Below, in pieces: positions 15,234 to 34,464 of a DNA stretch of 64,000 bases. The notes under the pieces are model-generated. The model did not search any database, had not been told where the DNA came from, and saw only the letters and a list, made by a program, of their open reading frames with translations. The first letter of the stretch is position 1. Every line of letters begins with the position of its first letter. Source of the DNA: Thermodesulfobacteriota bacterium (GTDB lineage: Bacteria > Desulfobacterota_D > UBA1144 > Nemesobacterales > UBA2774); the NCBI GenBank assembly GCA_963422265.1, contig OY729416.1, positions 352,001 to 416,000 on the forward strand. Direction: 5' to 3'. Both the position numbers and the translations under genes were made by a program.

Positions 15234-16088
15234 TCACCAACGCTTCCCATAAAGCTTTTCGGCATTATTCCAAAATATATCTTCCTTTAACTTTTCCGAT
15301 ATATCGGCGCCTTCTATTTTCCAGTATTCCGAGGCGAAATCGCTCCAGGGAATGTCCGAACCAAAAAGGAACCTGTCGCCTCCTATTCCTCTTTCCTCAA
15401 TTTCCTTGAGCAACCAGGTTGAACCAAACCCGACTGCCCACGACGAGTCGGTATAGACTTGATAGCCCTCTTGAACCAAGTCAAAGAATTTAGGCACGAA
15501 TTTTATATGGCCGCTAACCCCGCCACCCATGTGAACGACGTGTATTTTAACCTGTTTTCCGTATTCCTTAATTAGAGCCAGAGCGTTGTCAATATCAGAG
15601 CCCCCGCCTGGGCTTGTATGTATATGTAGAGGCATATCGTTATTGGCTGCTGTATCCAGAATCTTCTTCCATAGCTTAGAAGACTCATCATCCCACTGAG
15701 CAGGGTCAAAGGTGCCTCCGAGAAGACAAGTAGTTTTTAATCCAACTAAGCCTTTTTCACCAACCAACTTTAGCGCCTCTTCTGTGCGCTCCTTATCTTT
15801 AGGTAGTGCTGAAACCCAGATTAACCCTAGAAGGCGATCGGTGGATTGAACACTTTCCCCAACTAACGGATTCAACGTAAATGGTTGAGCAGAATCGGGG
15901 TAGCCGTAATTAGACATGATTAACGCGCGTTCTACTCCGTGATCATCCATTCCCTTAACGTAGTCGTCAGTTTTGTCGTAGTCTGTTGTAGGTTTGACCG
16001 CTTGAGGAAGACCATAATACGCAAAACCGGGCACGGGACCTATGTGGCTGTGATTGTCAAAAACCTTCTTTCTTTTTACAGTATTCAT
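15234..16088 (-). CDS. Amidohydrolase-2 family metal-dependent hydrolase
   Basis: DNHSH, LHIHT, VHMGG, LFGSDIP TIM-barrel motifs; SD aggagg. Confidence 0.85.
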   Translation of the reverse strand: MNTVKRKKVFDNHSHIGPVPGFAYYGLPQAVKPTTDYDKTDDYVKGMDDHGVERALIMSNYGYPDSAQPFTLNPLVGESVQSTDRLLGLIWVSALPKDKERTEEALKLVGEKGLVGLKTTCLLGGTFDPAQWDDESSKLWKKILDTAANNDMPLHIHTSPGGGSDIDNALALIKEYGKQVKIHVVHMGGGVSGHIKFVPKFFDLVQEGYQVYTDSSWAVGFGSTWLLKEIEERGIGGDRFLFGSDIPWSDFASEYWKIEGADISEKLKEDIFWNNAEKLYGKRW

Positions 16089-16111
16089 CTGATGATCCTC
16101 CTTTGGTTTTT

Positions 16112-16489
16112 TTAATGCGTCCCGATAGTTTCTCCAACTCGTTTACGCATAGATTTTTCAATAGATGTAGCTGTTTCTCCTTCATCAAGGCGCGCAGCCA
16201 CTTCCTTAAAGTCATCTCCATATCCCCCACGCGACTTTTGGCTAGCTTTTTTCATAACGTTCGCTAGGGACTTTGAATCTTCTAGACCTGGGCTATTTTT
16301 TGATGCCTCAGGAGTTTGTGAGGCAACTTTCCTGTGCATAACGGACACGTTGGAGAACACTCTCTCAAGTCTATCTCTACTACCGCATTCAGGGCAACTC
16401 GATTGTAGCTCGTTTGCTTCTGAAAGGCTAAAAAAGAATATCTCAACGTCTTTATTACACTCTAAACAGTGGTATTCATATATAGGCAT
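16112..16489 (-). CDS. FmdB-family zinc-ribbon protein
   Basis: MPIYEYHCLEC...CPECGS signature. Confidence 0.88.
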   Translation of the reverse strand: MPIYEYHCLECNKDVEIFFFSLSEANELQSSCPECGSRDRLERVFSNVSVMHRKVASQTPEASKNSPGLEDSKSLANVMKKASQKSRGGYGDDFKEVAARLDEGETATSIEKSMRKRVGETIGTH

Positions 16490-16519
16490 TTAGTTTTTCT
16501 TATAGTTTATATTTTTATA

Positions 16520-16548
16520 ATTGTAGGAAATATTATCTTTATAGTCAA
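16520..16548 (-). promoter_or_regulatory. Sigma70-type promoter TTGACT-N17-TACAAT for fmdB-amidohydrolase
   Basis: Both hexamers 5/6 to consensus with 17-bp spacer. Confidence 0.65.
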
Positions 16549-16709
16549 CCGTTAGTTTTGGGGCTTATATATTTCATAGCCAAATCTGCCCCCGCGTCAA
16601 CTTCTTATAAATATAAACTATCCTATACATGAACTTGATTGGGGGATGGGGAAACGATTTCTCCCTATACGTCAAATCTATATGAGTCCCTTGGTTTAAT
16701 TTACTAAAG

Positions 16710-16738
16710 TTGACAATCTATTCAATATAGTGAATATT
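16710..16738 (+). promoter_or_regulatory. Promoter TTGACA-N17-AATATT overlapped by palindrome TATTCAATATAGTGAATA (16719-16736)
   Basis: Perfect -35, 4/6 -10; 18-bp palindrome with one mismatched pair. Confidence 0.55.
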
Positions 16739-16744
16739 TTGTAA

Positions 16745-17209
16745 GTGATACCCATGGAAAAGTTTGTATTCAAAATAGTGGAGAATAAAAAGGATCTTGA
16801 AGCGTATTTTAAGTTGCGTCACAACGTATTTGTTAAGGAACAAGCGATTTTTGATGAAACCGACTTAGATGAATGCGATACAGAGCCTTTTCACAAAGCC
16901 GTGCACGTTGTAGCTTTGAAAGAGTCGGATGGTCAGATAGTGGGTGCCGTCAGGTGTTACAGGAAGGAAGGTACTACTTGGTTCGGGGGTCGCCTTAGCG
17001 CATCAAAAGGTTATCGGAATGGTAGGGTGGGAGTGGGGCTTATTAAGTTTGCGGTAAGCATAATGAAAAAAGAGAATTGCTCAAAATTTCTCGCTTACGT
17101 GCAGCCTCAAAACGTAAAGTTTTTCGTAAGATTAGGTTGGAAATCGATAGGAGAGCCCGAGATATATCACGGACTTTCTCATCAGCTTATGGAAGCCTGT
17201 TTAGATTAA
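16745..17209 (+). CDS. GNAT acetyltransferase, MSMEG_0567/Sll0786 (NitE-like) family
   Basis: LRHxVFVxEQxIF, GAVRC, WFGGRL, FLAxVQxQNVxFFxRLGW, HQLMxA. Confidence 0.85.
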   Translation: MIPMEKFVFKIVENKKDLEAYFKLRHNVFVKEQAIFDETDLDECDTEPFHKAVHVVALKESDGQIVGAVRCYRKEGTTWFGGRLSASKGYRNGRVGVGLIKFAVSIMKKENCSKFLAYVQPQNVKFFVRLGWKSIGEPEIYHGLSHQLMEACLD

Positions 17210-17223: not shown

Positions 17224-18186
17224 ATGAAGCAATTAATTAAGAGTCTGAAAAAATCTGATAGCTTAGTCCAGAAAGAAACTATTCAAAAAATCTGGAGCTA
17301 TTTCCCTCAAATCTCCGATATAGACGGAGGAGAAGTTCTTCTAGGGGATGATGCCGCCGCTATAGAATTTGGAAACAGTTACTTACTAATTGCAGGAGAG
17401 GGGGTTTATCCACCACTTCTAAAGTTGTCTCCCTACCTTGCGGGGCGTGTTTCGGTTCTTACAAACGTGAACGATATATATGCGATGGGTGGACGGCCTA
17501 TGGCTATTGTTGACGTGCTTATTTCCGATTGTGATGAAAACATGAAAGACGTTCTTAGCGGTATAAAGGAAAATGCAGCCCGCTACAGGGTGCCTGTAGT
17601 AGGGGGGCACGTATCGCAGGATTCTGGATGTTCCTCTCTTTCAGTTTTTATAATAGGTAAAGCTGAAAAGATACTATCAAGCTTTAACGCTCAAAAAGGG
17701 GATGACTTAGTTTTTGTATTTAATCCTAACGGCAAGTTTGTTTCTGGATTTAACTTCTGGGATTCCTCCAGCACCCTCGAAAGCAGCAAAGCGATTAAGG
17801 ATTTAGAGTTAATTGCGGAAGCTGCAGAGGAAGGCTTAGCAGACGCCGCTAAAGACGTAAGTATGAGTGGATTGATAGGCTCCCTCTTGATGATTCTTGA
17901 GAGCTCTCAAGTAGGAGCGGAAATCAACGTTGATACTATTTTGCGACCTTGCAACGTTCCGTTAGCCAAGTGGTTAGTAACGTTTCCTAGCTTTGGTTTC
18001 ATTTTCTCATTAAGACCCGAAAAGACATCGGTGTTTAAGGATAAGTTCAGCGCTTCATCTCTGAGTTGTGAGAGTATTGGAAGGGTCGTAAAGGAGAAGA
18101 GGGTTTATTTTATTAAGGGTGAAAGGGAAAAGGAGCTTTTTTGGAATATCGAGGAGACACCATTTATTGGGGTTAACCTGAGGTAG
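17224..18186 (+). CDS. AIR-synthase/SelD/HypE-fold protein, Sll0787 (NitF-like) family
   Basis: GDDAAAI, NVNDIYAMGGRP, VPVVGGH, AKDVSMSGLIG, WLxTFPSFGF. Confidence 0.87.
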   Translation: MKQLIKSLKKSDSLVQKETIQKIWSYFPQISDIDGGEVLLGDDAAAIEFGNSYLLIAGEGVYPPLLKLSPYLAGRVSVLTNVNDIYAMGGRPMAIVDVLISDCDENMKDVLSGIKENAARYRVPVVGGHVSQDSGCSSLSVFIIGKAEKILSSFNAQKGDDLVFVFNPNGKFVSGFNFWDSSSTLESSKAIKDLELIAEAAEEGLADAAKDVSMSGLIGSLLMILESSQVGAEINVDTILRPCNVPLAKWLVTFPSFGFIFSLRPEKTSVFKDKFSASSLSCESIGRVVKEKRVYFIKGEREKELFWNIEETPFIGVNLR

Positions 18187-18193: not shown

Positions 18194-18778
18194 ATGGAGA
18201 AGGAAGCCAATCAAATTGATCATATCGTTTCTAAACTCGGAGAAAAGATAAAGCTACTCCGTATTGAAAAGAGTTTATCTCTAAGGGATTTGTCTAGTAA
18301 ATCTGGAATCTCTGCTGCGGCTATACACAAGTTGGAGTCAAATGGTATGACTCCAACTATTACTACTATGATGAAAATAGCCGATGCGCTAGAAAGAAAC
18401 GTCAGTTATTTCATAGAGGAAGAAGGGAACAAGGACGTTGTATTTATTCCTGTGACTAAGCGAGAACCTATTCTGACTTTTAAGAAAGGGCTAGACTTAA
18501 AAGGTATTTCAGCGAAACAATACGGTGATTTTATTATGACGGCGGCTTACGCAACGGTAGAAGTAGGAGCGTCTAGCGGACGGACGCCGATGCAGCACCG
18601 AGGTGAGGAGTTGATCTATTGTCTTAGGGGCAAGATAGAGTTCAGTGTGCAGGATGAGGTCTATGTTTTAGATCCGGGGGACAGTATAAATTTCAGGACA
18701 AACTTAAAGCATAGGTGGAAAAATATCGGGGATAGGCAAGCAAAGTTAATATGGGTACTCGCAGTTCCGCCTTCGTGA
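18194..18778 (+). CDS. XRE HTH + cupin transcriptional regulator (PuuR/SutR-like)
   Basis: N-terminal HTH (LSLRDLS..SGIS..I.KLE); cupin HxGEE...GDS...HRW. Confidence 0.92.
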   Translation: MEKEANQIDHIVSKLGEKIKLLRIEKSLSLRDLSSKSGISAAAIHKLESNGMTPTITTMMKIADALERNVSYFIEEEGNKDVVFIPVTKREPILTFKKGLDLKGISAKQYGDFIMTAAYATVEVGASSGRTPMQHRGEELIYCLRGKIEFSVQDEVYVLDPGDSINFRTNLKHRWKNIGDRQAKLIWVLAVPPS

Positions 18779-18816: not shown

Positions 18817-20097
18817 TTGAACAAATCGAAACAAGAGTACATGGCAGACCTAATTAGAGACGCAAACGCACTCGCTATGAAGAATATATTATCTGCCGAG
18901 CCTGTGGTTGCAGATGTAGATACTGCACTTAACGTAATACCGGGAATGGATAGCAACGTGATACTTCATTCGGGACCGCCTATCAGTTGGCAGAGAATGT
19001 GTGACCCGATGAAAAGAGCAGTTAGGGGGGCTTTAATGTTTGAGGGGCTTGCGAGAGACGATCTTGAAGCGGAAAGGCTTATGAGATCAAATAAAATAAA
19101 GCTCTCTCCCAACCACCACTGTAATTCTGTTGGTCCCATGACGGGAGTCGTATCGGCTTCTATGCCCGTTATTATTACAAAGGACTTAACTCATGGGAAC
19201 AAGGCTTATTCTACGTTTAACGAAGGTGGAGGAAGGGCGTTGTGGTTTGGTGCTGTCGAAAAAGAGACAATAGAGAGACTTAGGTTTATCAGGGACGTCT
19301 TCGGTCCCGTCATGCAAAGGGTAATTAAGAAAATAGGGGATATACCTATATGGGGCATATTAGCACAGGGGATTCAGATGGGAGATGAATGTCACAATAG
19401 GCATACTGCATCTACCAACATATTTGTAAAAAGTATTATAGAGCCTCTTTTTTCTTTGAAAATCTCAACGGCTCGTGCTCTTCAAGTTTACAGGTTCATT
19501 GCAGGAAACAGCCATTTTTTTCTCAATATAACTATGACTGGATGCAAGCTCGCAATGGACTCGGCAAAAAATATACCTAATTCAACAATTGTAACGACGA
19601 TGTCACGAAATGGCACTGATTTTGGGATTAGGGTCAGTGGTCTTGGGGACAAGTGGTTTACTTATAGCGCCCCTTATTTACGTGACGCGCTCTACAATCC
19701 GGGCTACGACTATGAAGACGGCGCTCCAGATATAGGTGATAGCTCAATAATTGAGACAATGGGTCTTGGGGGATTCGTAATTGCTGCCGCACCTTCAATG
19801 GCTTCTTTTGCTGGAGGCGGATTTCAGGAAGCGGTTAATATAACAAGAGAAATGAGCCAGATAACGTCTTCTAAGAACCCTAAGTTTGGTATTACGTCAT
19901 TAAACTTTGACGGCGCTCCGACTGGCATAGACATTCGTAAAGTTGTTGAAACTGGGATATTGCCAAGTATAAATAGCGCCGTTGTTCATAAAAGCTCCGG
20001 GTCAGGGCAAATAGGTGCGGGGATAGTTCATGCTCCTTATGAGTGTTTTGTGAAAGCAGTTAAGGCATTTGGCGATAAATATAATCTGCACGCATGA
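18817..20097 (+). CDS. DUF1116 protein (YlbE/AllG/YahG family)
   Basis: LHSGPP, VGPMTG, MGDECHNR, MSRNG, DIGDSSIxE, D.RKVVETGI.P.IN, GQIGAG. Confidence 0.9.
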   Translation: MNKSKQEYMADLIRDANALAMKNILSAEPVVADVDTALNVIPGMDSNVILHSGPPISWQRMCDPMKRAVRGALMFEGLARDDLEAERLMRSNKIKLSPNHHCNSVGPMTGVVSASMPVIITKDLTHGNKAYSTFNEGGGRALWFGAVEKETIERLRFIRDVFGPVMQRVIKKIGDIPIWGILAQGIQMGDECHNRHTASTNIFVKSIIEPLFSLKISTARALQVYRFIAGNSHFFLNITMTGCKLAMDSAKNIPNSTIVTTMSRNGTDFGIRVSGLGDKWFTYSAPYLRDALYNPGYDYEDGAPDIGDSSIIETMGLGGFVIAAAPSMASFAGGGFQEAVNITREMSQITSSKNPKFGITSLNFDGAPTGIDIRKVVETGILPSINSAVVHKSSGSGQIGAGIVHAPYECFVKAVKAFGDKYNLHA

Positions 20098-20139: not shown

Positions 20140-21699
20140 ATGACAATAGTAAATACGGTTAAAAGAAATAATTATCAGGACTCAATGAAGCTCATGCAGA
20201 TTAGTCGGGAGCTTAAATCTATGTCTGGGGTTATAAGTGCGTCCGCGATAATGGCGACCGAGGCTAATTTGGCGATGTTAAAGGAGGCGGGCTTGATTGA
20301 AAATATCCCCGAGTTAGTTACGGCTAATGATTTAATTGTAGCCATTAAAGCTCAATCCGATGAGGTTGCGAAGGAAGCTATAAGTGAATTGGACTCCCTT
20401 ATAAAGCCTACTGGTTCAACTCTCTCATCGAACTTAGAATATAAGAATTTCGGTTTGGCTTTTAACTCGCTGATTGGGGCTAACCTCACGGTTATTTCCG
20501 TGCCTGGGGAATATGCAAAACTAGAGGTTGCTAAGGCGATTGATAGTGGGCTTCATACGTTTCTGTTCAGTGATAACCTAACGGTTGAGGAAGAGATAGA
20601 GCTGAAGCAAAGAGCTAGGGATAAAGGGCTCTTGGTTATGGGCCCTGGATGTGGAACAGCATTGATAGATGGTATTGGCATAGGATTTGCCAACTTTATC
20701 AATAAAGGCCCAATTGGCGTGATTGCCGCCTCTGGGACGGGGCTTCAAGAGATCACCTGCCTTATTAATAATTTTGGATCAGGCATCACTCACGGAATTG
20801 GAGTTGGGGGAAGGGATTTATCTGAGGAAGTAGGGGGAATTATGACCTTAGAAGCAATAAGGATGCTTAAAAACGATGATAATACAGAGGCACTTGTAAT
20901 TGTTTCTAAACCCCCATCTCGCAGAGTTGCAGATATGGTTGTGTCCGCGGTTAGGGATTCGGGAATGCCGTCCGTTGTTTGCTTTTTGGGCAGCGATCTG
21001 ACTACTCAAGATGGACATATTTATTTTACTTCCAACTTGGAGGATGCAGCCCTTAGCGTAGTCGGACTAACTACAAAGACTGATATGAAGCAAAACCTAA
21101 ACTTAGATAAAGAGTTGTGGGGGCGGGCGAAGGAAATGGTAGAGTCTTTTGATTCTAAGCAGAAGTATATAAGGGGGTTATATTCGGGGGGCACGCTTTG
21201 TTATGAAGCCCAACAAATACTTACTCCAATTCTAGGAACAATATATTCAAATGCCCCACTCAATAAAAAGCACAAACTTAAAGATTCAAGATTGAGCGTG
21301 CGAAACTCCTGTATAGACCTGGGAGAAGAGGAATTCACGATAGGGCGTCCACATCCGATGATAGACGCAGGTTTGAGGGTAGAGAGACTAATAACCGAGT
21401 CGAGTAAACCAGAAGTTGCGGTCATATTATTCGACGTGGTACTAGGCTACGTGGCGAGCTCTGACCCCGCTGGTGATTTGGTATTAGCAATTAGGGATGC
21501 TAGAAGTTTGGCGAGAAAAAGAGGGAAGAACATTGCATTTGTTTCTCACGTGTGTGGCACTGAAAATGATCCGCAGTGCCTACGAGAACAAGAACAAAAG
21601 TTAAAGGAAGAAGGAGTTCTTGTATTTCCGACCAACGCTCTTGCTGCAAGAATCGCCGGGTGGATTGTAAAAAGGGGTGAGGTGGACAAGTATGAATAA
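20140..21699 (+). CDS. fdrA: FdrA/AllF/YahF family protein (succinyl-CoA-synthetase-alpha-like)
   Basis: YQDSMKLM, ISVPGEYA, FSDN, MGPGCGT, ASGTGLQE, GGRDL, GLYSGGTL, GRPHPMID. Confidence 0.9.
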   Translation: MTIVNTVKRNNYQDSMKLMQISRELKSMSGVISASAIMATEANLAMLKEAGLIENIPELVTANDLIVAIKAQSDEVAKEAISELDSLIKPTGSTLSSNLEYKNFGLAFNSLIGANLTVISVPGEYAKLEVAKAIDSGLHTFLFSDNLTVEEEIELKQRARDKGLLVMGPGCGTALIDGIGIGFANFINKGPIGVIAASGTGLQEITCLINNFGSGITHGIGVGGRDLSEEVGGIMTLEAIRMLKNDDNTEALVIVSKPPSRRVADMVVSAVRDSGMPSVVCFLGSDLTTQDGHIYFTSNLEDAALSVVGLTTKTDMKQNLNLDKELWGRAKEMVESFDSKQKYIRGLYSGGTLCYEAQQILTPILGTIYSNAPLNKKHKLKDSRLSVRNSCIDLGEEEFTIGRPHPMIDAGLRVERLITESSKPEVAVILFDVVLGYVASSDPAGDLVLAIRDARSLARKRGKNIAFVSHVCGTENDPQCLREQEQKLKEEGVLVFPTNALAARIAGWIVKRGEVDKYE

Positions 21700-22654
21700 A
21701 GTTAATGAAACCAACAAGAGAACCGCCATCGTCGCTTTCGGGGGTAACGCTCTTATGGGAAAGGATGGAAATAGCCCCTACGTTGAGCAGATGAGGAAGA
21801 CCGATGTTATGTGTAATAAGCTCCTAAGCCTTTTTAACATGGGTTATAGAGTATTGATTACCCATGGTAATGGACCTCAGGTCGGCAATTTCCTAATGCA
21901 GCAAGAGAATCTAGCTGCAAACGTTCCTCCTCTACCGCTTGACGCATGTAACGCCATGACCCAGGGGCAAATCGGTTATATGATTGAGCAAAGTCTCAGA
22001 AATACGTTCACAAGAAACAAGATAAACAAGCCAATAATCGTTTTGATAACACAGATTGTTGTTTCAGAAGATGACCCTGCTTTTAACGAGCCTACAAAGT
22101 TTATAGGACCGTTTTTTAATAGGCAGCAAAGTGAGAAGCTAAGTAGAGAAGAAGGATGGCTTATGAGAGAGGACTCGGGGCGTGGATACAGACGTATTGT
22201 AGCTTCCCCTAAGCCAATAGATATAATAGAAAAAGAAGAGATAATGGAAATGACAAATAGAGATTTTGTCGTCATAGCTTGTGGCGGGGGAGGAATTCCT
22301 GTGGTTCGTGATAAGAGAAATATGCTTAGGGGCGTGGCAGCTGTTATTGATAAGGATTTTGCTGCCGAAAAAATAGGTAGCTACATGAGAGCAGAAGTTC
22401 TCTTGCTCGTTACGCCCGTCGAGCAAGTGGCAATTAATTACGGGACTCCTAAGCAAAAAGATTTATCTAAAGTTACGCTTGAAGAAGCGGAGCACTATCT
22501 CTCAGAAGGGCATTTTGCCCTGGGAAGCATGGGACCTAAAATTGAAGCTGCTATACAATTTATTCGTTCAGGTGGGGATAAAGTAGTAATAACGTCTATT
22601 GACAATATAGAATCAGCAATAAACGGAGGAGCGGGAACGGAGATAACCCGATAA
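21692..22654 (+). CDS. arcC: Carbamate kinase
   Basis: GGNAL, THGNGPQVG, PTKFIG, GGGGIPV, VIDKD, GSMGPK. Confidence 0.95.
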   Translation: MNKVNETNKRTAIVAFGGNALMGKDGNSPYVEQMRKTDVMCNKLLSLFNMGYRVLITHGNGPQVGNFLMQQENLAANVPPLPLDACNAMTQGQIGYMIEQSLRNTFTRNKINKPIIVLITQIVVSEDDPAFNEPTKFIGPFFNRQQSEKLSREEGWLMREDSGRGYRRIVASPKPIDIIEKEEIMEMTNRDFVVIACGGGGIPVVRDKRNMLRGVAAVIDKDFAAEKIGSYMRAEVLLLVTPVEQVAINYGTPKQKDLSKVTLEEAEHYLSEGHFALGSMGPKIEAAIQFIRSGGDKVVITSIDNIESAINGGAGTEITR

Positions 22655-22680
22655 GCGTACGAGGATTTATGGGACGGATG

Positions 22681-22710
22681 TTCATCTCCTTATTTCGAAA
22701 TAGGAATGAA
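22681..22710. other. Imperfect inverted repeat centred on the palindrome TATTTCGAAATA, between arcC and the next promoter
   Basis: TTCATCTCCTTATTTCGAAATAGGAATGAA; possible terminator or protein-binding site. Confidence 0.35.
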
Positions 22711-22725
22711 GGAGTCTAAAAAAGA

Positions 22726-22758
22726 TTGAACTTACTCTCTGTTTATAATATAATGAAC
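22726..22758 (+). promoter_or_regulatory. Promoter TTGAAC-N17-TATAAT overlapped by imperfect palindrome GTTTATAATATAATGAAC
   Basis: Perfect -10 at 22749-22754 with 17-bp spacer; palindrome 22741-22758. Confidence 0.65.
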
Positions 22759-27360: not shown

Positions 27361-28519
27361 AATAGCCCTCCTGACATATTCTACAAAACCTAGAGGTGGC
27401 GTTGCGCATACTTTGTCGCTTGCCAAAAGCCTTGCATCCCTTAGGCATAAAGTGGGTATTTATGCCCTTTCGTCAGGGGAGGATTTCTTCAAGCAGGTTG
27501 GCGTCCCCTATACGCTTATTCCATGTCCTAAAAGGAGTTATGAGAGCGTTGAAGAGAAGGTGAAAGACTATATAAACGTATATACGGAATATCTAGCTAA
27601 TAATGAAAAAATCTACGATATTTACCATGCAGAGGACTGCATTTCAGCAAATGCCCTTTTTAATTTGCGTGAAAGGGGAATCATTAAATTTTATGTGAGA
27701 ACAATTCATCATATAGACGATTTCACTTCAGAATCTCTCATAGATTGTCAACTGAATAGCATACTCAAGCCTGACTATTTAATAGTTGTCAGTAAGTTCT
27801 GGCAGCGTGTGCTCAGAGCTAAATACTCTTTAAGTTCTAACGTTATAAATAATGGGGTTGAAGTAGAGAAATTCAGGTGCAATGAGAAGGCGGGATCAAA
27901 AGAGATTGCTAAGGGAAAGTTCTCTGTTGAAGGTAAAAAAGTAATGTTGAGCATCGGGGGGATTGAACCTCGTAAGAATACTATTACCGCTCTTAGGGCT
28001 TTTAATATTGCCAGAGCCTATTTTAAGGCAAAAGGTGAGAAGCTCATATGGATTGTAGGTGGAGGTGAAACCCTTTTTGATTACAGGGGTTACCGTGAGG
28101 AATTTTACTTAGAAATTGATAAATTAAATCTGCTGTTGGATAGAGACGTTATTATACTTGGAAACGTGCCCGATAGCTCAATGCCTTTTCTATATGAAGC
28201 ATCAGACGTTTTTGTATTTCCCTCTCTTAAGGAAGGGTGGGGGCTCGTTGTCCAAGAAGCAATGGCGTCAGCAGTTCCTGTAATCGCTTCGGATATAGAG
28301 CCTATGACGGAGTATTTGAAGAATGGAGACAACTCAATTCTCATTGATCCTATGGACTATAAAACCCTAGCTAATGAAGTTATAAGAATTATTGAAAACA
28401 AGGAACTAAGAACAAGGATTATAAACAAGGGCAAGGAGACTGCTCAGGCGTATAGCTGGAAAAGCGCAGCTCTGAAACACTCCCGGTACTATTCGGATAT
28501 ACTATCATTTAATGTTTGA
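27347..28519 (+). CDS. GT4 glycosyltransferase, MSMEG_0565 family
   Basis: TYSTKPRGGVxHTL, HAEDCISANA, RTIHHIDDF, GGIEPRKN, GGETLFDY, FPSxKEGWG. Confidence 0.9.
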   Translation: MNTHRIALLTYSTKPRGGVAHTLSLAKSLASLRHKVGIYALSSGEDFFKQVGVPYTLIPCPKRSYESVEEKVKDYINVYTEYLANNEKIYDIYHAEDCISANALFNLRERGIIKFYVRTIHHIDDFTSESLIDCQLNSILKPDYLIVVSKFWQRVLRAKYSLSSNVINNGVEVEKFRCNEKAGSKEIAKGKFSVEGKKVMLSIGGIEPRKNTITALRAFNIARAYFKAKGEKLIWIVGGGETLFDYRGYREEFYLEIDKLNLLLDRDVIILGNVPDSSMPFLYEASDVFVFPSLKEGWGLVVQEAMASAVPVIASDIEPMTEYLKNGDNSILIDPMDYKTLANEVIRIIENKELRTRIINKGKETAQAYSWKSAALKHSRYYSDILSFNV

Positions 28520-28528: not shown

Positions 28529-28927
28529 ATGATAGAAGCAAAAGCCGTATGGAAGAAAAATTATCAGGTAGAGGTTAAGGCAAGACAATTTAATATAGAC
28601 GTTGACGAAGCACCTATGTTTCATGGGGATGATACTGGTATGATGCCTACAGAATTGTTTCTATCCTCGGTGGCTACGTGTTTTTGTCTTGCGCTTGTGT
28701 ACGTTGCTAGGAAACAGAACGTTGAGCTAAGTGATTTGAGAGTTAACGTAACCGGAGAGGTAAATACGAAAAACTGCACGTTTACCAGATTATTCATAAA
28801 AGTAGGGAGTTCTCTCGCTACTGAAGCATTGGAAGAGATGATAAGTGCCGCAAAGAAATACTGTTACGTTAGCAACACGGTCAATAGGTCTTGTCCCATA
28901 GAATATGATATGATAAGTGGCGTCTGA
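28529..28927 (+). CDS. OsmC/Ohr-family protein
   Basis: DE...G.DxGxxPxE...xxxC and KYCxVSxT two-Cys pattern. Confidence 0.88.
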   Translation: MIEAKAVWKKNYQVEVKARQFNIDVDEAPMFHGDDTGMMPTELFLSSVATCFCLALVYVARKQNVELSDLRVNVTGEVNTKNCTFTRLFIKVGSSLATEALEEMISAAKKYCYVSNTVNRSCPIEYDMISGV

Positions 28928-28949
28928 GCTTAAAGGAATGTGTGGTTTG

Positions 28950-29402
28950 ATGCGAAAGGTTATAATCAAATACGGCTACTTCCAGGATTCTCTAAGGCTA
29001 ATGCGCGTTTCAACAGTATTCAGACAAAGAAGCGGCGTAAAGAACGCGGTCGCAGTTATGGCAACGGAGAAAGCGAAACACGTGCTTGAAGACACGGGTC
29101 TTATAACGGATGAGGTTAGGGAGGCAAACGGCAGTGATTTGGTATTGGCGGTAGAGGCTAAATCCAATGAAATTGCCGAACGGGTGATAGGAGAAATGTT
29201 CAAGGAGATTTCAGCGGGTTTGCAAGCGAGCGAGGAAAATACACCTGACTTATTAAAAGATGGGCTCAGGGTTATAAACGTTGGTCTTGACGTGTTTAAG
29301 GATGCGCTTGAAGATCAAGGCGTGAAAACGGTGCACGTTAAGTGGGAAGTGCCAGCAAAGGGTGACGAAAAGATTATTGGTATTTTGAAGAAGATGTGTT
29401 AG
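28950..29402 (+). CDS. Mini-FdrA: duplicated FdrA N-terminal domain fused to FdrA C-terminal tail domain
   Basis: N-half FQDSLRLM...VMATE...DLVLAV matches 20140 FdrA N-terminus; C-half VINVGL..F..AL..QG....HV.W..PA.G. Confidence 0.8.
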   Translation: MRKVIIKYGYFQDSLRLMRVSTVFRQRSGVKNAVAVMATEKAKHVLEDTGLITDEVREANGSDLVLAVEAKSNEIAERVIGEMFKEISAGLQASEENTPDLLKDGLRVINVGLDVFKDALEDQGVKTVHVKWEVPAKGDEKIIGILKKMC

Positions 29403-29438
29403 CTGCGAGTTGGAAGCAGCATAGTGTAGGTGTGTAAG

Positions 29439-30005
29439 ATGAGCATACGAAAACCTGAAAGACTAAAGGACGTGCTCTCAGACCCGCAAGGGCTCGCAAG
29501 GGCATTTTCAAGGCATACTTACGGTATGCTTGTATGGGTAGATTTGTTTGGCTATAAAATTCAATTTATTGAGGATGTTAGCCTCAGAGCCATTGTTACT
29601 AGAATAATCGCTGATAATGCTAAGCACGCGAAACTCTTTGCGAATAGGGCAAAGGAGATGGGGGAAACCCCCGAGGCTTATAATCCTCCTGAGATAGGTC
29701 AAAGAATCTATAATATACTTAGAAACTATGTTAACGTGTTTGATGATTTTGCTTACGCGTGGGGAGCGCTAATACATTTTTCAGCTTTGCTTGACTTGTA
29801 TAGTAGCGTTGCGGATCCCCGAAGCCGCGACGTTATCCTGCAAGTTCAAACTGACGTCATAGTGCATTTGGTGCATCTCGAACGATATTTTGCGGTGAAT
29901 GCTAACACGCAGGAAAAAAGGAAGCGGGTACAGGAGATAAAAGCGATAGTAGATAGCGCATATTCCGATAGAGAGGATGAGGAGATAAAATGGTATGCGT
30001 TGTAG
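29439..30005 (+). CDS. Ferritin-like four-helix-bundle protein with degenerate metal ligands
   Basis: Twice-repeated helix pair ending DNAKH and DVIVH (D/ExxH-like). Confidence 0.55.
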   Translation: MSIRKPERLKDVLSDPQGLARAFSRHTYGMLVWVDLFGYKIQFIEDVSLRAIVTRIIADNAKHAKLFANRAKEMGETPEAYNPPEIGQRIYNILRNYVNVFDDFAYAWGALIHFSALLDLYSSVADPRSRDVILQVQTDVIVHLVHLERYFAVNANTQEKRKRVQEIKAIVDSAYSDREDEEIKWYAL

Positions 30006-30843
30006 CAAAATTCCGAGCTTTGAAGAGTTAAAAAAGCCTCTACGTTATCACGATCCAAAGTACTTTTATTTCAAACTTATTTCCTTTTTGTTAAGAGCCG
30101 TTGGAACTTTATCAGACGGGATCAGGGTCGGGTATGATTATGGTTTCGATTCAGGTGCCATAATGAACTACATATATGAAAATACACCTCACGGGCGACT
30201 TGGGATTGGAAAAAGCATTGATGCGACTTTTCTTAATCAGACGACTTGCAAGGCATTCAGGTCTATTAAGCAGATACAAAAGAACGTGATTTTAAAGTAC
30301 TTAAGTGAGAGGAATGATAGAAATACATTTATTGTAGATTTGGCTGCCGGCAACGCAGATTACATATATGACGTATTAGATGAAACTGTATCCGACGTAT
30401 CAGTTCTGCTTTGTGACATAAGTCGAGATACCCTTGCAGAAAGCAAAGCGATAGCAAGGAGACGAAACCTTGTTGATAAAATCCGTTATGAGGATGGAGA
30501 CACTCTTGATCCCGATAATCTGAGAGGCATTGAGCCTTTGCCTAACCTTGTTATTGAGGTTGGGCTTTTCGGTATCATCCATGATGATGAACGGATAAAG
30601 AAGCATATGCTTGATCTTAAAGAGATATTGAATCCGGATGCGTTTTTGTTTAACGTGCAGACATACAACGAGCAAATAGAGATCATAGCAAGAGCGCTTA
30701 AAAACCAGAAGGGAGAGCCTTGCGTCTGGCACCTACGCCCTGCCGAGCTTGTAATAAGTTGGGCGGAGGAAGCTGGCTTCAAAAATCCCGAAGTTACTAT
30801 GGATCCTTATAATATATATGCCGCTGTATTGATGAGAGCTTAA
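29995..30843 (+). CDS. Class I SAM-dependent methyltransferase (YnbC C-terminal/Methyltransf_20-like)
   Basis: GI..G...GFDSG...xYxYxNxPxG...GxxID..FL; VDLAAG. Confidence 0.8.
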   Translation: MRCSKIPSFEELKKPLRYHDPKYFYFKLISFLLRAVGTLSDGIRVGYDYGFDSGAIMNYIYENTPHGRLGIGKSIDATFLNQTTCKAFRSIKQIQKNVILKYLSERNDRNTFIVDLAAGNADYIYDVLDETVSDVSVLLCDISRDTLAESKAIARRRNLVDKIRYEDGDTLDPDNLRGIEPLPNLVIEVGLFGIIHDDERIKKHMLDLKEILNPDAFLFNVQTYNEQIEIIARALKNQKGEPCVWHLRPAELVISWAEEAGFKNPEVTMDPYNIYAAVLMRA

Positions 30844-30869: not shown

Positions 30870-32255
30870 ATGAAAAAAGAAAGATTCGTCCTAGATTGGC
30901 GATCCTCTAGTAAAAGTTCTCCATTCCTGAATGAGATTCTATCGGACAGACTTAAATCCGTTCTCGAGAGTCCTCACGGAATGTGGAACTATATGACCTA
31001 CCGCGACGCAATAGGTATGTTGGATTGCGATCCGGGAAATATATATAGGGAAGGTAGGATTGATTTGGATCCCACCGTCTGGGCTGACCTAGGATGGATG
31101 ATCTGCTATGTTGGTCCTCCCTCGAAAGCCGTTGAGGCTATGCGCGCCAATACGATTGAGGACAATATTAATCCTTACTCTCCTGATCTAATAAACCCAC
31201 TTAGGGATACTTCTGCTGAACTAAAATTTAAGCGGTGCAGGAGCAAGGATTTCGAAGTTATAGGATTAGAAGGCAGTCAGGCTGGAGTTTCTTATGTTCT
31301 ACAGTCCGTTATGAACCCGGGGGATGAAGTGATCATAACCGATCCGGGTTATTTTCATTTTGAATCATCAATTCTTATGGGGGGTGGGGTGCCAATTAGG
31401 ATTGTGCTAGATTCGAATAACGGTTTCAGACTAGAGCCCAATCAGGTAGAGGCTTGCATTACACCAAAAACGAAGGTGATTATCGTCTGTGATCCTTTGA
31501 ATCCATTCGGTTCCATCCAGACTAAAGAGGAGCTGCTTCAGATAATAGAAATCGCTAGAAAATACAACGTGATTATCATTGATGATATTACGCATAACAC
31601 CCAGCAAATAGATCCCAATTCCATGCACTATCCAATGACCTCTCTCTATAAAGAGACTAATATAGACAACGTGGTCTCAACCTTTAGCCTTTCACACGGT
31701 TACGGAATGGCTGGTGTAAGGATGGGGTTTCTCGCCGGTAATGCTGAACTAATGCGAGCGTGCCTTATAGCAAAAACCTCGCTAACTAGGCTTAATACCA
31801 ACCTTATAGCACAATACGGAGCTTTAGCCGCTCTTCAAGATAAAGATTACCTAATATACTCCCAGAACGTTATTAGGCGTAATTATAAAATAGTCAAGGA
31901 GATTATAAGGAATAACAAGGGGGTGTCCATACCCGTTGAGCCTCAGTATGGTTTCTCTATGGTTATTGACATCTCAGAAACTGGGGTATCCTCTCAAGAG
32001 CTGACCGTGGCGCTATTTAAGCATAATATTGCCGTTTATCCTGGGGATGGGCTCGGTAGTGTAGGCTCGACAGATTATATAAGGCTCAATATTTCAAGAC
32101 CCGACCTGTGGGCATTCGAGCGCTTAGAAAAATATCTCCCGGTTGCACTGTCCGAGGCTAAGTGCGGCGCTTATAAACAAAGCGTGATAGAATTCTTCGA
32201 GCGAAAACAAACTGATCGGGCAAAAATGATTATTGAGAACATTAGGAAAAGCTAG
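30870..32255 (+). CDS. Aminotransferase class I/II fold protein with His at the PLP-Lys position
   Basis: PGDEVI..DPGY, PxNPxG, IDD, SLSHGYGMAGVRMG, IRL. Confidence 0.85.
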   Translation: MKKERFVLDWRSSSKSSPFLNEILSDRLKSVLESPHGMWNYMTYRDAIGMLDCDPGNIYREGRIDLDPTVWADLGWMICYVGPPSKAVEAMRANTIEDNINPYSPDLINPLRDTSAELKFKRCRSKDFEVIGLEGSQAGVSYVLQSVMNPGDEVIITDPGYFHFESSILMGGGVPIRIVLDSNNGFRLEPNQVEACITPKTKVIIVCDPLNPFGSIQTKEELLQIIEIARKYNVIIIDDITHNTQQIDPNSMHYPMTSLYKETNIDNVVSTFSLSHGYGMAGVRMGFLAGNAELMRACLIAKTSLTRLNTNLIAQYGALAALQDKDYLIYSQNVIRRNYKIVKEIIRNNKGVSIPVEPQYGFSMVIDISETGVSSQELTVALFKHNIAVYPGDGLGSVGSTDYIRLNISRPDLWAFERLEKYLPVALSEAKCGAYKQSVIEFFERKQTDRAKMIIENIRKS

Positions 32256-33202
32256 TGAATTTGTCCGAAAGTATTCTCGACCTAATTGGAAACACGCCGC
32301 TTATAAAGCTCAATAGCTTAGCAAGTGGATTTAAGCCTGAAGTATATGTAAAGGGCGAGTCTTATAACCCGAGTGGCAGTATTAAGGACAGAGTTGCAAT
32401 TAATATAATCAAAGATGCTGAGAGTAGAGGAGTTCTCAAACCGGGTGACACAATAGTTGAAGCTACGTCTGGCAATATGGGAGCTGCCTTAGCTCTTATA
32501 GGAACCGTAAAGGGGTATAGATGCATACTTACATTACCTGAGACAACTACAAGAGAAAAGATACAAGTGCTTAAGCTATTTGGTGCGGAAGTGATCCTTA
32601 CTCCAAAGGGTCTTTCACCGTCTGATGAGCAAAGTTGCTACGAGGTAGCGCGCAGGACGGCTGGGGAGAAAAACGCTTTCTACGTTAATCAGTATTTTAA
32701 TAGTCTCAATCCAGACGCGCATTATAAGACCACCGGACTGGAGATATGGCGCGATACGCAAGGCAGTGTTGATACGGTTATTTGTGGTATAGGAACTGGG
32801 GGGACTATAACTGGAGTGGGTAAGTACCTAAAAGAAAGGAAGGCAGGTATTAGAGTTATTGGAGTTGAGCCCGTGGGCTCGGTATTTAAGACGTATCTTG
32901 AAACAGGAGCGTTTACGACTGAAGCATCGGATTTTAGCATAGAAGGGATTGGGAAGAATTTCATACCGGGGGCACTTGACCTTGGCTATGTTGACGACGT
33001 CATACAGGTGTATGAGCAAGACGCCTTTCATTGGCAGAAGGATCTATTGAAGAGAGAAGGTATTTTAGTGGGTCCATCGAGCGGTGCTGCTATAGATGCT
33101 GCTATTAGATACGCTCGTGACAATTATAAAGATGAATATATTGTTGTTATACTTCCTGATGCAGGATCGAAATACTTATCAAGATACGCAGGGATTAGCT
33201 GA
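32255..33202 (+). CDS. Cysteine synthase / cystathionine beta-synthase family PLP enzyme
   Basis: IGNTPL, KxExxNPSGSIKDR, EATSGN, GTGGT, IEGIG, GPSSG, PDxGxKYLS. Confidence 0.92.
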   Translation: MNLSESILDLIGNTPLIKLNSLASGFKPEVYVKGESYNPSGSIKDRVAINIIKDAESRGVLKPGDTIVEATSGNMGAALALIGTVKGYRCILTLPETTTREKIQVLKLFGAEVILTPKGLSPSDEQSCYEVARRTAGEKNAFYVNQYFNSLNPDAHYKTTGLEIWRDTQGSVDTVICGIGTGGTITGVGKYLKERKAGIRVIGVEPVGSVFKTYLETGAFTTEASDFSIEGIGKNFIPGALDLGYVDDVIQVYEQDAFHWQKDLLKREGILVGPSSGAAIDAAIRYARDNYKDEYIVVILPDAGSKYLSRYAGIS

Positions 33203-33231
33203 TCCTACTATACGTAACAGGACGTATTTCC

Positions 33232-34464
33232 ATGTTAACCCTTAGTGAAGACAAAGTTCAGAGTTTGACTGAAGATTATGGTTCGCCCCTATTTGTCGTT
33301 TCAGCCAATACGGTGAGAGAAAACGTTAAGAATTTTAGGAGTCAGTTTTCTGAACGTTATCCAGAGGTCGTAGTTGCTTACTCTTATAAGGTAAATTACC
33401 TGCCTGATGTTCTAAGAATTATTCACAAGGACGGCGCTTGGGCTGAGGTAGCCTCCGGATTTGAGTATGAGCTAGCGAAAAGGTTGGGTGTTCCTGGTCG
33501 TTCTATTGTATTTAATGGTCCCTATAAAAAAAAAGAAGAACTAATACGGGCTGTAGAAGACGGGGCTATAATAAACGTAGATAACGCTGAAGAAATCAGT
33601 GTGCTTGAGGGGCTATCCTGCACTGCTCGGAAGCCGATCAACGTAGGGATTAGGGTTAATACGAATGTAGAGACTGACCAACTGCCCGACCGCTTTGGCT
33701 TTAATCTGGAATCTGGTGAAGCAGCGCGGGTTGTAGCTTTATGTGCTGATAGAAAATTATTGAACGTAATTGGATTACACATACACCTTACGAGTTATAT
33801 TGTTGAGTCTAAGTGCGAAGGTGATGTTCCCTCAAAGGGAATAAAACTTATGTGGCCAAAGGGATGTCAGGCTTATGAGGAAGCTTCAAGAAAGATTGCG
33901 AGGTTCGCGAGAGAGGTTGGTGAGAAGTATGGCATTCGGTTTAAGTACCTAGATATGGGGGGAGGTTTCCCTACGGTAGATTCATTGACTCCCTACGTTG
34001 AGGCAATAACTATTCCAATACTGAGTGAATTTAGACGAGAAAGTCTGCCACTATTAATACTGGAGCCTGGGAGGGCAATAGTAAGTAACGCTATTGACCT
34101 TATCTCAACGGTCATAACGGTCAAGAGTGTTGCTGATGAGGGAATATTCGCGGTAATTGATAGCGGAATTAATCTTCTTCCAACTTCCATTTTTAGATAT
34201 CAGAACGTTGAATGTATAACGGATTCAAAGGGCAAATTGAAAGAAACTACTGTTTACGGACCCCTTTGTCTTCAAATCGACGTAGTTACAAAGGCGCAAC
34301 TTCCTGAGCTTAGAGTTGGGGATAAAGTTATTATTAAAAACGTAGGAGCCTACAATATGCCCCAGTCGGGCACGTTCATTTTTCAACAGCCGATGGTCGT
34401 TATGATAGACGCCGAAGAAGTAAGGATTATTAAGAAATCAGGAACTGTTGAAGATATATTATAA
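33232..34464 (+). CDS. Fold-III PLP decarboxylase (diaminopimelate/ornithine decarboxylase-like)
   Basis: YSYKxN, EVASGFE, FNGPYK, RFG, DMGGGF, EPGR, GPLC, GAY. Confidence 0.88.
   Translation: MLTLSEDKVQSLTEDYGSPLFVVSANTVRENVKNFRSQFSERYPEVVVAYSYKVNYLPDVLRIIHKDGAWAEVASGFEYELAKRLGVPGRSIVFNGPYKKKEELIRAVEDGAIINVDNAEEISVLEGLSCTARKPINVGIRVNTNVETDQLPDRFGFNLESGEAARVVALCADRKLLNVIGLHIHLTSYIVESKCEGDVPSKGIKLMWPKGCQAYEEASRKIARFAREVGEKYGIRFKYLDMGGGFPTVDSLTPYVEAITIPILSEFRRESLPLLILEPGRAIVSNAIDLISTVITVKSVADEGIFAVIDSGINLLPTSIFRYQNVECITDSKGKLKETTVYGPLCLQIDVVTKAQLPELRVGDKVIIKNVGAYNMPQSGTFIFQQPMVVMIDAEEVRIIKKSGTVEDIL

Follow-up and report, generated by a model that had tools for sequence, protein, structure and literature searches.

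Positions 15234 to 34464 of a 64,000-nucleotide stretch of Dadabacteria DNA (contig OY729416.1 of assembly GCA_963422265.1, positions 352,001 to 416,000 of the forward strand; "the window" below means this whole stretch) hold 21 tightly packed open reading frames (ORFs), which we read, with a probability of about 0.9, as a single conserved, nitrilase-free variant of the Nit1C gene cluster in the Dadabacteria. The Nit1C/gpr cluster, which is conserved in multiple phyla, has been linked to nitrogen starvation, to the assimilation of cyanide and to resistance against peroxide, its chemistry having been unexplained since 2005. In the Dadabacteria locus, the places of NitC (the nitrilase), NitG and NitH are taken by parts with no relation to them, namely, an Amidohydro_2 hydrolase, a flavoprotein resembling coenzyme A disulfide reductase (CoADR) together with a conserved protein of 82 amino acids (aa; orf82), and AllFGH-type transcarbamylase subunits with a carbamate kinase. 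The genes form two modules, one running from the GNAT gene through the GT4 glycosyltransferase gene and including the amidohydrolase (module 1), and one running from the OsmC gene through a decarboxylase gene (module 2, the tail). While the Nit1C core and the AllFGHK families were already known, their combination, shared by many uncultured Dadabacteria, is a new variant. An earlier prediction, made from the letters of the window alone, had known of no description of the combination, and no paper describing it was found in the literature, although the supplements of PMC12625717 and PMC1199592 may hold further AllFGHK and Nit1C contexts.

That original prediction had proposed a 21-gene locus in three apparent transcription units, which is confirmed by ORF boundaries and spacing. 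Both limits coincide exactly with ORF boundaries, as the first minus-strand ORF ends at 15234 and the last plus-strand ORF has its stop at 34464. Two ORFs, one for the Amidohydro_2 hydrolase and one for an FmdB zinc ribbon, are on the minus strand, and the other 19 are on the plus strand in two runs; spacing inside the units ranges from -23 to +116 bases, and two wider gaps, of 255 bases (16490-16744, divergent) and 216 bases (22655-22870), fit three transcription units. The G+C fraction of the locus (0.41 to 0.47) is as in the remainder of the window. Every family that had been named was recovered in Pfam and NCBIfam profile scans of the window proteins, with curated cut-offs, and a helix-turn-helix (HTH)-cupin regulator that had gone unmentioned (18194-18778) completes the count of 21. 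Five products score over the NCBIfam cut-offs of Nit1C/gpr families:

16745..17209, plus strand: NitE-type GNAT, 154 aa (TIGR04045, 139.7 bits; cut-off, 68.45)
17224..18186, plus strand: NitF-type AIR-synthase-like protein, 320 aa (TIGR04049, 324.4 bits; cut-off, 321.3, a narrow pass)
22871..23362, plus strand: NitB of the MSMEG_0572 family, DsrE-like, 163 aa (TIGR04044, 173 bits; cut-off, 109.85)
23479..24609, plus strand: NitD, radical SAM protein (rSAM) of the MSMEG_0568 family, 376 aa (TIGR04043, 342.6 bits; cut-off, 303.7)
27347..28519, plus strand: GT4 glycosyltransferase of the MSMEG_0565 family, 390 aa (TIGR04047, 371.9 bits; cut-off, 259.85)

The NitF-type protein also reached 242.3 bits with the methanogenesis marker 2 model, which is below that model's cut-off. 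Nit1C consists of nitBCDEFGH with nitA and occurs in Pseudomonas, in Synechocystis (sll0783-0787) and in others (Podar et al. 2005, PMC1199592; PMC11049912), a GT4 being an occasional member (PMC1199592). Our canonical comparison, a Xenorhabdus locus (L026), carries the full NitA-H set, with the NitB to NitH models all over their cut-offs. Like such clusters, the Dadabacteria locus encodes NitB, NitE, NitF and a NitD with the C-x8-C-x2-C motif that pass the same NCBIfam models, albeit with scores just above the cut-offs (342.6 for the rSAM, versus 584.9 in Xenorhabdus); unlike them, it has no Nit6803-family nitrilase, NitG or NitH, carries the HTH-cupin regulator in place of the sigma-54 NitA, and contains about 14 added genes. 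Since three of the seven gene-content features that define Nit1C are missing, the locus is best regarded as a sister variant and should not be filed as Nit1C. With the gpr cluster of Mycobacterium smegmatis (MSMEG_0565-0572), it shares the core families, including the MSMEG_0565 GT4, whereas gpr has a nitrilase and the MSMEG_0569 and MSMEG_0570 families and has no AllFGH, carbamate kinase, CoADR-like protein, OsmC or tail of pyridoxal phosphate (PLP) enzymes (PMC6039565).

The absence of the nitrilase, NitG and NitH, likewise part of the original prediction, holds for the cluster and, at the level of these families, for the genome, a single contig of 1,783,595 bases rated 99.42% complete. Profile searches of this complete genome gave no match to NitG (TIGR04042) or NitH (TIGR04046), and a Nit6803-family nitrilase NitC (TIGR04048) was found neither in the cluster nor, over the cut-off of 502.6, anywhere in the genome. 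What has to be qualified is that two distant nitrilase homologues lie elsewhere, about 0.85 and 1.0 Mb from the cluster (L001 and L002, G000:C1:1219776-1220663 and 1372418-1373374); they score 219.5 and 213.9 bits (also given as 218.5 and 214.4) against the TIGR04048 cut-off of 502.6, both have the Nit6803 nitrilase as their best NCBIfam model, and they are 31 to 36% identical to true NitC. Homologues of this kind were found in 94 of the 120 phylum genomes (one per species), whether the cluster is present or not; in one family they were found in 37/37 genomes, 10 of which (9 over the cut-off) matched the rSAM model. Their distribution is thus independent of the rSAM, and the homologues do not follow the cluster. 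A Nit1C nitrilase over the cut-off was found in none of the 120 genomes. Homology of orf82 to NitG and of the CoADR-like protein to NitH was also considered and rejected, as neither protein has any similarity to its supposed counterpart; the replacements are therefore nonhomologous. They stand among the remaining genes of module 1 and its surroundings:

15234..16088, minus strand: Amidohydro_2 metal-dependent hydrolase, 284 aa (Pfam PF04909, 69.3 bits)
16112..16489, minus strand: FmdB-type zinc ribbon, 125 aa (PF09723, 45.3 bits; TIGR02605, 43.9 bits; cut-off, 31.3)
18194..18778, plus strand: HTH-cupin regulator, PuuR-like, 194 aa (HTH_3 and Cupin_2; PuuR model, 59.9 bits, below cut-off)
18817..20097, plus strand: AllG-like subunit (DUF1116), 426 aa (PF06545, 265.4 bits; cut-off, 27)
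20140..21699, plus strand: AllF/FdrA-like subunit, 519 aa (NF004760, 474 bits; cut-off, 433)
21677..22654, plus strand: carbamate kinase (arcC), 325 aa (TIGR00746, 380.4 bits; cut-off, 358.25)
24640..25971, plus strand: flavoprotein like CoADR, NADH oxidase and persulfide reductase, 443 aa (Pyr_redox_2, 168.3 bits; Pyr_redox_dim also present)
26031..26279, plus strand: orf82, conserved protein, 82 aa (no Pfam or NCBIfam match)
26302..27360, plus strand: AllH-like subunit (DUF2877), 352 aa (PF11392, 69.2 bits; cut-off, 25; residues 220-335)

Residues H13, H15, H155, H157, H183, H186 and H194 of the hydrolase are kept in 21/21 orthologues, and C8, C11, C32 and C35 of the FmdB protein in 9/9. The hydrolase, whose nearest solved relative is a decarboxylase (E=6e-4), belongs to a 90%-identity cluster of 94 members with the source name amidohydrolase. 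The FdrA match spans profile positions 4 to 496 of the 555 of NF004760, and its gene is overlapped at the end by 23 bases of the carbamate kinase gene; a GHAG phosphohistidine motif was looked for in FdrA and is not present, from which, with no reference to judge by, nothing was concluded. A long N-terminal part precedes the DUF2877 match in the AllH-like protein. The flavoprotein falls under every equivalog cut-off (CoADR-like model, 283.9 versus 578.8), and its best solved relatives are 6ruz (2.9e-62), the CoA-persulfide reductase 8a56 and the CoADR 4fx9. Of the 34 related loci, 19 have kept the regulator within the operon, and it recurs in two more distant loci (L065 and L094).

Conservation was followed in 104 loci (L003 to L106), 24 from the species genomes and 80 being the best of 549 metagenome relatives of an rSAM alignment; with pattern-based scans and this best-80 selection, rare intermediate forms may have escaped. 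The rSAM of 22 of the 24 species-genome loci is 72 to 84% identical to that of the window, and among the best 80 metagenome relatives, 12 are at 73 to 85% and the other 68 at no more than 42%; in all, the loci split into 34 of the Dadabacteria type and 70 distant ones. NitA, NitC, NitG and NitH are each found in 0/34 Dadabacteria-type loci, and NitC is found in 47/70 distant loci. Dadabacteria-type loci contain FdrA (21/34), AllH (21/34), arcC (22/34) and Amidohydro_2 (20/34), all of them at 0/70 in the distant set (AllH by tblastn), as well as AllG (20/34), the CoADR-like protein (27/34) and orf82 (25/34, located by tblastn), each of which has a single distant occurrence (1/70), in L094. The misses in the Dadabacteria-type loci are due to contigs ending early. 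Among tail genes, those for the Methyltransf_20 protein, the aminotransferase, the CysK-like enzyme and the decarboxylase are each at 0/70 in distant loci and OsmC is at 1/70; GT4 is at 19/70. Over the 104 loci, the nitrilase and the AllFGH/arcC set are thus mutually exclusive in their distribution.

The original prediction had named a combination confined to one genome as a sign against it; the combination is in fact kept in others, with identical gene order in all long Dadabacteria-type loci over the 72 to 85% range of rSAM identity. Two arrangements exist. In the first, as in the window, the amidohydrolase and FmdB genes are divergent; in the second, FmdB is absent and the amidohydrolase gene lies in line between arcC and NitB, where it adjoins NitB as NitC does in canonical clusters. 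In one of the two arrangements, the hydrolase is 82 to 90% identical to its relatives. Among the 120 phylum genomes, the rSAM is over its cut-off in 50, AllG is present in 53, and the ferritin-like tail protein, orf191, is present in 53 (plus one weak match); within the 50 rSAM genomes, AllG is found in 49 and orf191 in 49, the exceptions to co-occurrence all being fragmented or at most 90% complete genomes. Only four genomes have AllG without the rSAM, each at most 88% complete, and in 40 of the 49 genomes with both, the two lie on one contig less than 6 kb apart (read from position tables). Since related genomes are nonindependent samples, these counts show co-inheritance and do not amount to a statistic. 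The locus marks a trait that divides the Dadabacteria (50 of 120 species genomes). In one genome (G093, contig C2:162754-173635), an in-frame TGA interrupts AllG, and the reading of orf191 falls into three pieces, breaks that could be either cluster decay or assembly errors.

These data bear on the idea that a Nit1C remnant, an AllFGHK ureide module and an amino-acid/polyamine module are merely chance neighbours. The three apparent transcription units, the unlinked position of the tail in several genomes and the occurrence of AllFGHK without Nit1C genes in Escherichia coli and nitrifiers (PMC11326118, PMC12625717) would agree with it. However, AllH and mini-FdrA (a short FdrA relative of the tail) are interleaved with NitB, the rSAM and GT4, and AllG, FdrA and arcC are in one operon with the GNAT and AIR-synthase-like genes; together with the co-occurrence in 49 of 50 genomes, the gene order kept over the entire identity range, the rarity of AllG without the rSAM and the lack of allantoin genes (see below), this brings the idea close to refutation, and we consider it highly improbable. 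As for the earlier argument that the interleaved sets form one pathway, the co-occurrence of rSAM, AllG and orf191 and the kept gene order sustain it, with the correction that the tail is separable and lies elsewhere in some genomes.

Phylogenetically, the Dadabacteria rSAM is a separate, isolated clade. In a tree of 100 sequences (quick IQ-TREE search, LG+G4; midpoint rooting for drawing only; with a long-branch warning), from which 5 of 105 rows were left out (four partial and one with too short a stop-free piece), the 31 Dadabacteria-type rows form one clade with an SH-like approximate likelihood ratio test (SH-aLRT) value of 100 and a stem of 1.08 changes per column. Its nearest neighbours are short contigs with only the rSAM and GNAT genes, with or without the AIR-synthase-like gene. 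A search of 1.84 billion 50%-identity representatives, yielding 152 proteins at E values up to 1e-30, gave a full-length protein (76% identity) and a fragment (72%), with no other match exceeding 42%. Cysteines C118-x8-C127-x2-C130 and C343-x2-C346-x2-C349 are invariant across both clades. The claim of a distinct subtype is upheld by the clade and by the drop in identity from 76% to 42%, whereas the lack of a nitrilase in itself is not unique, as 7 of the 46 distant loci with enough upstream flank are also without NitC beside the rSAM. Many distant rSAM relatives (P0143, P0147, P0149-P0151 and others) are 500 to 560 aa long. In one locus (L041:1888-3405), the rSAM is fused to GNAT, which points to a physical coupling of NitD and NitE.

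The tail, module 2, consists of seven genes on the plus strand:

28529..28927, plus strand: OsmC-like protein, 132 aa, first tail gene (PF02566, 72 bits)
28917..29402, plus strand: mini-FdrA, 161 aa (NF004760, 76.1 bits, below cut-off)
29430..30005, plus strand: ferritin-like four-helix protein (orf191), 191 aa (profile match to bacterioferritin 1nf4, E=2e-4, and also to aldehyde decarbonylases)
29995..30843, plus strand: Methyltransf_20 protein, 282 aa (PF12147, 167.5 bits)
30870..32255, plus strand: PLP enzyme of class I/II aminotransferase fold, 461 aa (PF00155, Aminotran_1_2, 111 bits)
32255..33202, plus strand: PLP enzyme like CBS, CysK and cysteate synthase, 315 aa (PALP, 277.3 bits)
33232..34464, plus strand: PLP enzyme of Orn/DAP-decarboxylase fold, 410 aa (PF02784 and PF00278)

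Residues 17-94 of mini-FdrA match the FdrA N terminus (37% identity, E=5e-15) and residues 109-160 resemble the extension at the N terminus of the L094 AllG (33% identity, E=1e-10), a likeness to both AllF and AllG that links module 2 to module 1. Relatives of orf191, which start at its fourth codon (188 aa), are named rubrerythrin, bacterioferritin or ferritin-like by their sources, and the Atlas leads are likewise ferritin-like; at the aligned ExxH motif positions, orf191 has N63..H66 and D142..H146, not ExxH. The ferritin-like label of the original prediction, as well as the DsrE-like label of NitB, is backed by profile matches (1nf4, E=2e-4; 3mc3, E=7.4e-4) and stands on weaker ground than the others. 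All 77 NCBIfam matches of the aminotransferase-fold enzyme are below cut-off, its best solved relatives being aspartate and aromatic aminotransferases. The CysK-like enzyme is below the cut-offs for CBS (358.5 versus 510.25), CapA (344.8 versus 600) and PRK10717 (335.3 versus 387), as is the decarboxylase-fold enzyme for lysA (201.8 versus 297.9) and FslC (182.1 versus 500); the best solved relative of the latter is N-citrylornithine decarboxylase 7kh2 (1.5e-42).

In three loci (L012, L016 and L018), the cluster stops at GT4, with an H+-pyrophosphatase gene next in the last two. Unlinked tails were found in genome G001 (OsmC, mini-FdrA, orf191, methyltransferase, aminotransferase, CysK-like enzyme and decarboxylase), in G013 (the same set minus the CysK-like gene) and in G010 (orf191 to decarboxylase, with the CysK-like gene missing). 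The tail, from OsmC to the decarboxylase, can thus be separated as a module, yet it accompanies the core in evolution also where the two are not adjacent.

Three relatives are informative on what may stand in for the nitrilase. The first, L094 (a 13.7-kb metagenome contig, 1-13686), has an rSAM that nests among canonical ones and carries, besides NitB and the HTH-cupin regulator, genes resembling those for orf82 and the CoADR-like protein (the latter 54% identical), AllH and an AllG with a mini-FdrA-like N terminus, plus DUF1097, a MocR-type regulator and an LnmK/Pnap_2097-family protein; its AllG and AllH share one strand block with the alpha subunit of a nitrile hydratase (TIGR01323, 301.7; cut-off, 249.85). 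The second, L021 (rSAM 72% identical), has AllG, FdrA, GNAT, AIR-synthase-like, arcC, NitB, amidohydrolase, rSAM, CoADR-like and orf82 genes and, directly upstream of AllG, a 750-aa ORF (L021:9-2261) that fuses XcbD and XcbE of the bacterial coenzyme M pathway (xcb genes; PMC9457059). The XcbD part scores 587.6 versus 600, its N terminus being cut by the contig end, and the XcbE part scores 475.8 versus 450. An IS110 fragment follows orf82 in this locus. The third, L065 (a metagenome contig, 150-13700), has a canonical NitC-D-E-F core (NitC, 555.1) and coenzyme M homologues, with the XcbA family over its cut-off (308.7 over 150) and XcbC, XcbD, XcbE and ComA below theirs, and also carries OsmC, a MocR regulator, the HTH-cupin regulator and an LnmK-like protein. 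L021 therefore shares with the Dadabacteria locus the nitrilase-free core with AllG, FdrA, arcC, amidohydrolase, CoADR-like protein and orf82, and OsmC and the HTH-cupin regulator recur in L065; the Dadabacteria tail differs from the coenzyme M genes in consisting of a ferritin-like protein, a methyltransferase and three PLP enzymes. As xcb genes occur once with NitC (L065) and once with the amidohydrolase, AllFG and arcC (L021), and a hydratase stands beside AllG and AllH (L094), these sets look like alternative routes for one step. Transporters of the major facilitator superfamily were seen within or beside some clusters (L023:12647-14122, L057:11247-12614), which hints at substrate uptake or product export.

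For an exchange of this kind, the agmatine pathway offers a precedent, as N-carbamoylputrescine is split there either by a nitrilase-superfamily amidase or by a transcarbamylase with a carbamate kinase. For the Dadabacteria locus, we tentatively propose, at somewhat less than even odds, that the nitrilase step is taken over by a hydrolase together with phosphorolysis to carbamoyl phosphate, so that ATP and ammonia are formed. The core would make or process a small nitrogen- and sulfur-containing metabolite, whose C-N bond would be split in canonical clusters by the nitrilase, with release of ammonia. In Dadabacteria, the amidohydrolase would, by hydrolysis or hydration, give a carbamoyl (ureido or thiocarbamoyl) compound, AllFGH would convert this by phosphorolysis to carbamoyl phosphate, and carbamate kinase would turn the latter into ATP, NH3 and CO2. 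The net reaction would be that of the nitrilase step, plus energy recovery, while NitB, the CoADR-like flavoprotein and OsmC might keep a thiol or persulfide of the pathway reduced.

In E. coli, AllFGH and AllK act catabolically, converting oxalurate to carbamoyl phosphate (plus oxamate) and then gaining ATP (PMC11326118); in metagenome-assembled genomes of nitrifiers, AllFGHK adjoins biuret and triuret hydrolases, with no upstream purine genes (PMC12625717). The Dadabacteria locus resembles the E. coli system in having all three subunit families and carbamate kinase over their cut-offs; it differs in that the subunit genes are divided between two operons and in that its FdrA lacks the last ~55 profile positions and is supplemented by a separate mini-FdrA. 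The original prediction had named nitC, nitG and nitH lying elsewhere in the genome, together with an independent association of the FdrA module with allantoin genes, as contrary signs. Neither came true: the three Nit families are absent from the genome, AllG follows the rSAM within the phylum, and in this genome the best allantoinase match scores 237.8 versus 357.85 and Ldh_2/AllD is absent, so the carbamoyl-phosphate module does not serve allantoin breakdown and, with no allantoin or ureidoglycolate genes in the genome, its substrate is probably not oxalurate. As CarB is encoded elsewhere in the genome (1551 bits), carbamoyl phosphate can be provided without the kinase of the cluster. The catabolic role in E. 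coli, the nitrifier context, the presence of CarB and the lack of allantoin genes together favour the breakdown direction.

Several points weigh against our interpretation. Co-occurrence partly reflects descent, related genomes not being independent, and the genome of L021 has its AllH on a separate contig, where its neighbours include a LysR regulator and a sulfite-oxidase-family molybdoenzyme but no other cluster genes. The two nitrilase homologues elsewhere in the genome could, in principle, act in trans. The role assigned to the Amidohydro_2 protein is a guess, and no nitrile hydratase is recognisable in this genome or in Dadabacteria. Furthermore, with its rSAM, GNAT, GT4, methyltransferase and three PLP enzymes, the locus has the look of a biosynthetic rather than a degradative system; the kinetics of E. 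coli AllFGH were taken in the synthetic direction, both enzymes being reversible (PMC11326118); and Nit6803-family nitrilases act on carbon nitriles, e.g., fumaronitrile and cinnamonitrile (PMC7815647), an activity that by itself gives no pointer to a carbamoyl intermediate.

One alternative is a biosynthetic direction, which we judge unlikely. Carbamate kinase would then supply carbamoyl phosphate, AllFGH would carbamoylate an amine or thiol made by the core, and the AIR-synthase-like enzyme would dehydrate or cyclise the product with ATP, the ATP-dependent dehydration carried out by HypE serving as the model for this step; GT4, the methyltransferase and the PLP enzymes would complete a sulfur-containing metabolite or cofactor that bears a carbamoyl, cyano or glycosyl group. 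The AIR-synthase-like protein does have HypE, along with ThiL, SelD and PurL, among its solved relatives, but a HypE-type carrier cysteine was sought in it and none is conserved (the best, C282, is found in 26/53), making a protein-bound thiocarbamate of the HypE type unlikely. GNAT, GT4, Methyltransf_20 and three PLP enzymes are typical of biosynthesis, and the unlinked tail stays intact as a module; yet CarB already provides carbamoyl phosphate without a dedicated kinase, and we know of no carbamoylating gene cluster that carries a dedicated carbamate kinase. The mutual exclusivity of the nitrilase and AllFGH/arcC fits two ways of breaking a bond better than bond making. Finally, AllFGH runs synthetically in vitro (PMC11326118), which would suit this direction, whereas the induction of the canonical relatives by nitrogen starvation (PMC6039565) would not.

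The conserved cysteines of the locus invite another explanation, in which it would make, recycle and use a thiol or persulfide carrier (coenzyme-M-like or glycosylated) in defence against oxidants, with the carbamoyl-phosphate module as an accessory. NitB and the rSAM would insert sulfur, the flavoprotein would reduce the disulfide or persulfide, OsmC would be a thiol-using peroxidase, and the PLP tail (cysteate-synthase-like enzyme, decarboxylase and aminotransferase) would supply the carbon-sulfur part. Cys116 of NitB (YACRF) is invariant in 11 sequences, canonical ones included; the single Cys45 near the N terminus of the CoADR-like protein (YSPCG) is kept in 29/29 orthologues; and Cys51 and Cys112 of OsmC are kept in 16/16. 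The solved relatives of the flavoprotein include CoA-persulfide reductase and CoADR, the rSAM shows weak matches to LipS2, BioB and lipoyl synthase, and NitB, although below the cut-off for Pfam DsrE (E=0.026), gave a weak profile match to the DsrE/DsrF-like structure 3mc3 (E=7.4e-4, 46 residues only) in which the Cys is aligned. The M. smegmatis gpr cluster confers peroxide resistance and a raised NADPH/NADP ratio (PMC6039565), and the thiol/redox theme of the Dadabacteria locus fits that phenotype, which does not bear on the identity of the product. Coenzyme M genes adjoin the related cores L021 and L065, but these are the only 2 of the 104 rSAM-anchored loci with Xcb genes (database searched, 113 loci); ComA, XcbA and ComDE alpha have no match in the window's own genome, whose sole XcbD-like match is 27% identical, and XcbE is over its cut-off in 0/120 phylum genomes. 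Moreover, GT4 is far below the cut-offs of BshA (77.7 versus 273.7) and MshA (76.7 versus 462.5), the CysK-like gene is missing from some tails, and the strict linkage to AllFGH/arcC is left unexplained, for which reasons we hold this explanation to be doubtful.

A more specific form of the breakdown scheme, which we regard as a long shot, would have all forms of the cluster handle a cyano group borne by a small thiol or amine, as in an organic thiocyanate or cyanamide, the carrier perhaps being a coenzyme-M-like thiol; the thiocarbamate-thiocyanate chemistry of HypF and HypE is an analogy. The canonical nitrilase would cleave it in one step. In L094, the nitrile hydratase would hydrate the cyano group and pass the carbamoyl product to AllG/H. 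The Dadabacteria route would lead, through the amidohydrolase, AllFGH and carbamate kinase, by way of carbamoyl phosphate to ATP, NH3 and CO2. Recycling of the thiol would fall to NitB together with a flavoprotein, either NitH or the CoADR-like protein. If true, this scheme would join cyanide assimilation, nitrogen-starvation induction, the peroxide/NADPH phenotype and the recurring coenzyme M genes.

With regard to regulation, promoter-like sites were noted in the two wider gaps of the locus:

16490..16744, no strand assigned: divergent intergenic region, with promoter-like sites at +16710..16738 and -16548..16520 (10/12 match each)
22655..22870, plus strand: intergenic 5' leader of the NitB operon, with a promoter-like TTGAAC-17-TATAAT at 22726..22754

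As promoter-like sites (33 versus 38.6 in shuffles) and terminators (17 versus 16.4) show no excess, these sites serve as positions only. In the divergent region (16501-16740), the AT-rich repeat ATAGTnnATATTT occurs in about four copies in both orientations and may be either an operator or something that arises by chance in AT-rich DNA; counting half-sites upstream of the orthologues yielded no convincing sign of a shared operator motif. The NitB leader (22746-22870) holds a small hairpin before the ribosome-binding site, the pairing of which is kept through two-sided changes in 12 orthologous leaders and which matches no Rfam family. An Rfam scan of the cluster for riboswitches and other known RNAs (E up to 1) gave only two tRNAs after the cluster and one chance snoRNA match. 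In a run that was only guessed to be RNA (X7), one contig begins at 22760, six bases past the promoter-like -10 box, and short contigs fall on the NitB, rSAM, amidohydrolase and aminotransferase genes and on the beginning of the flavoprotein gene; none of this was used as evidence. Directly after the last cluster gene, tRNA-Lys (CTT) and tRNA-Leu (TAG) (34533-34698) form the 3' border, followed downstream by tig, clpP and clpX (34729-37929). Upstream, 12200-15178 encodes a 992-aa protein with two M16 peptidase units, the halves of which resemble YfmH and YfmF (associated with modification of elongation factor P), below cut-off; it was rejected as a cluster member, a partial match standing beside only 1 of the 24 genome-contig loci (L009).

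Taken as a comparative clue to the function of Nit1C, the Dadabacteria locus amounts to a natural experiment, in which a hydrolase, a transcarbamylase plus carbamate kinase and a flavoprotein of another kind have jointly taken the place of the nitrilase, NitG and NitH. Such a block replacement would narrow the intermediate shared by all forms to one with a C-N group able to leave either as ammonia, through the nitrilase, or as carbamoyl phosphate, and it names enzymes that can be assayed directly. If our interpretation is true, AllFGH-type transcarbamylases would have a second biological setting, outside purine breakdown.

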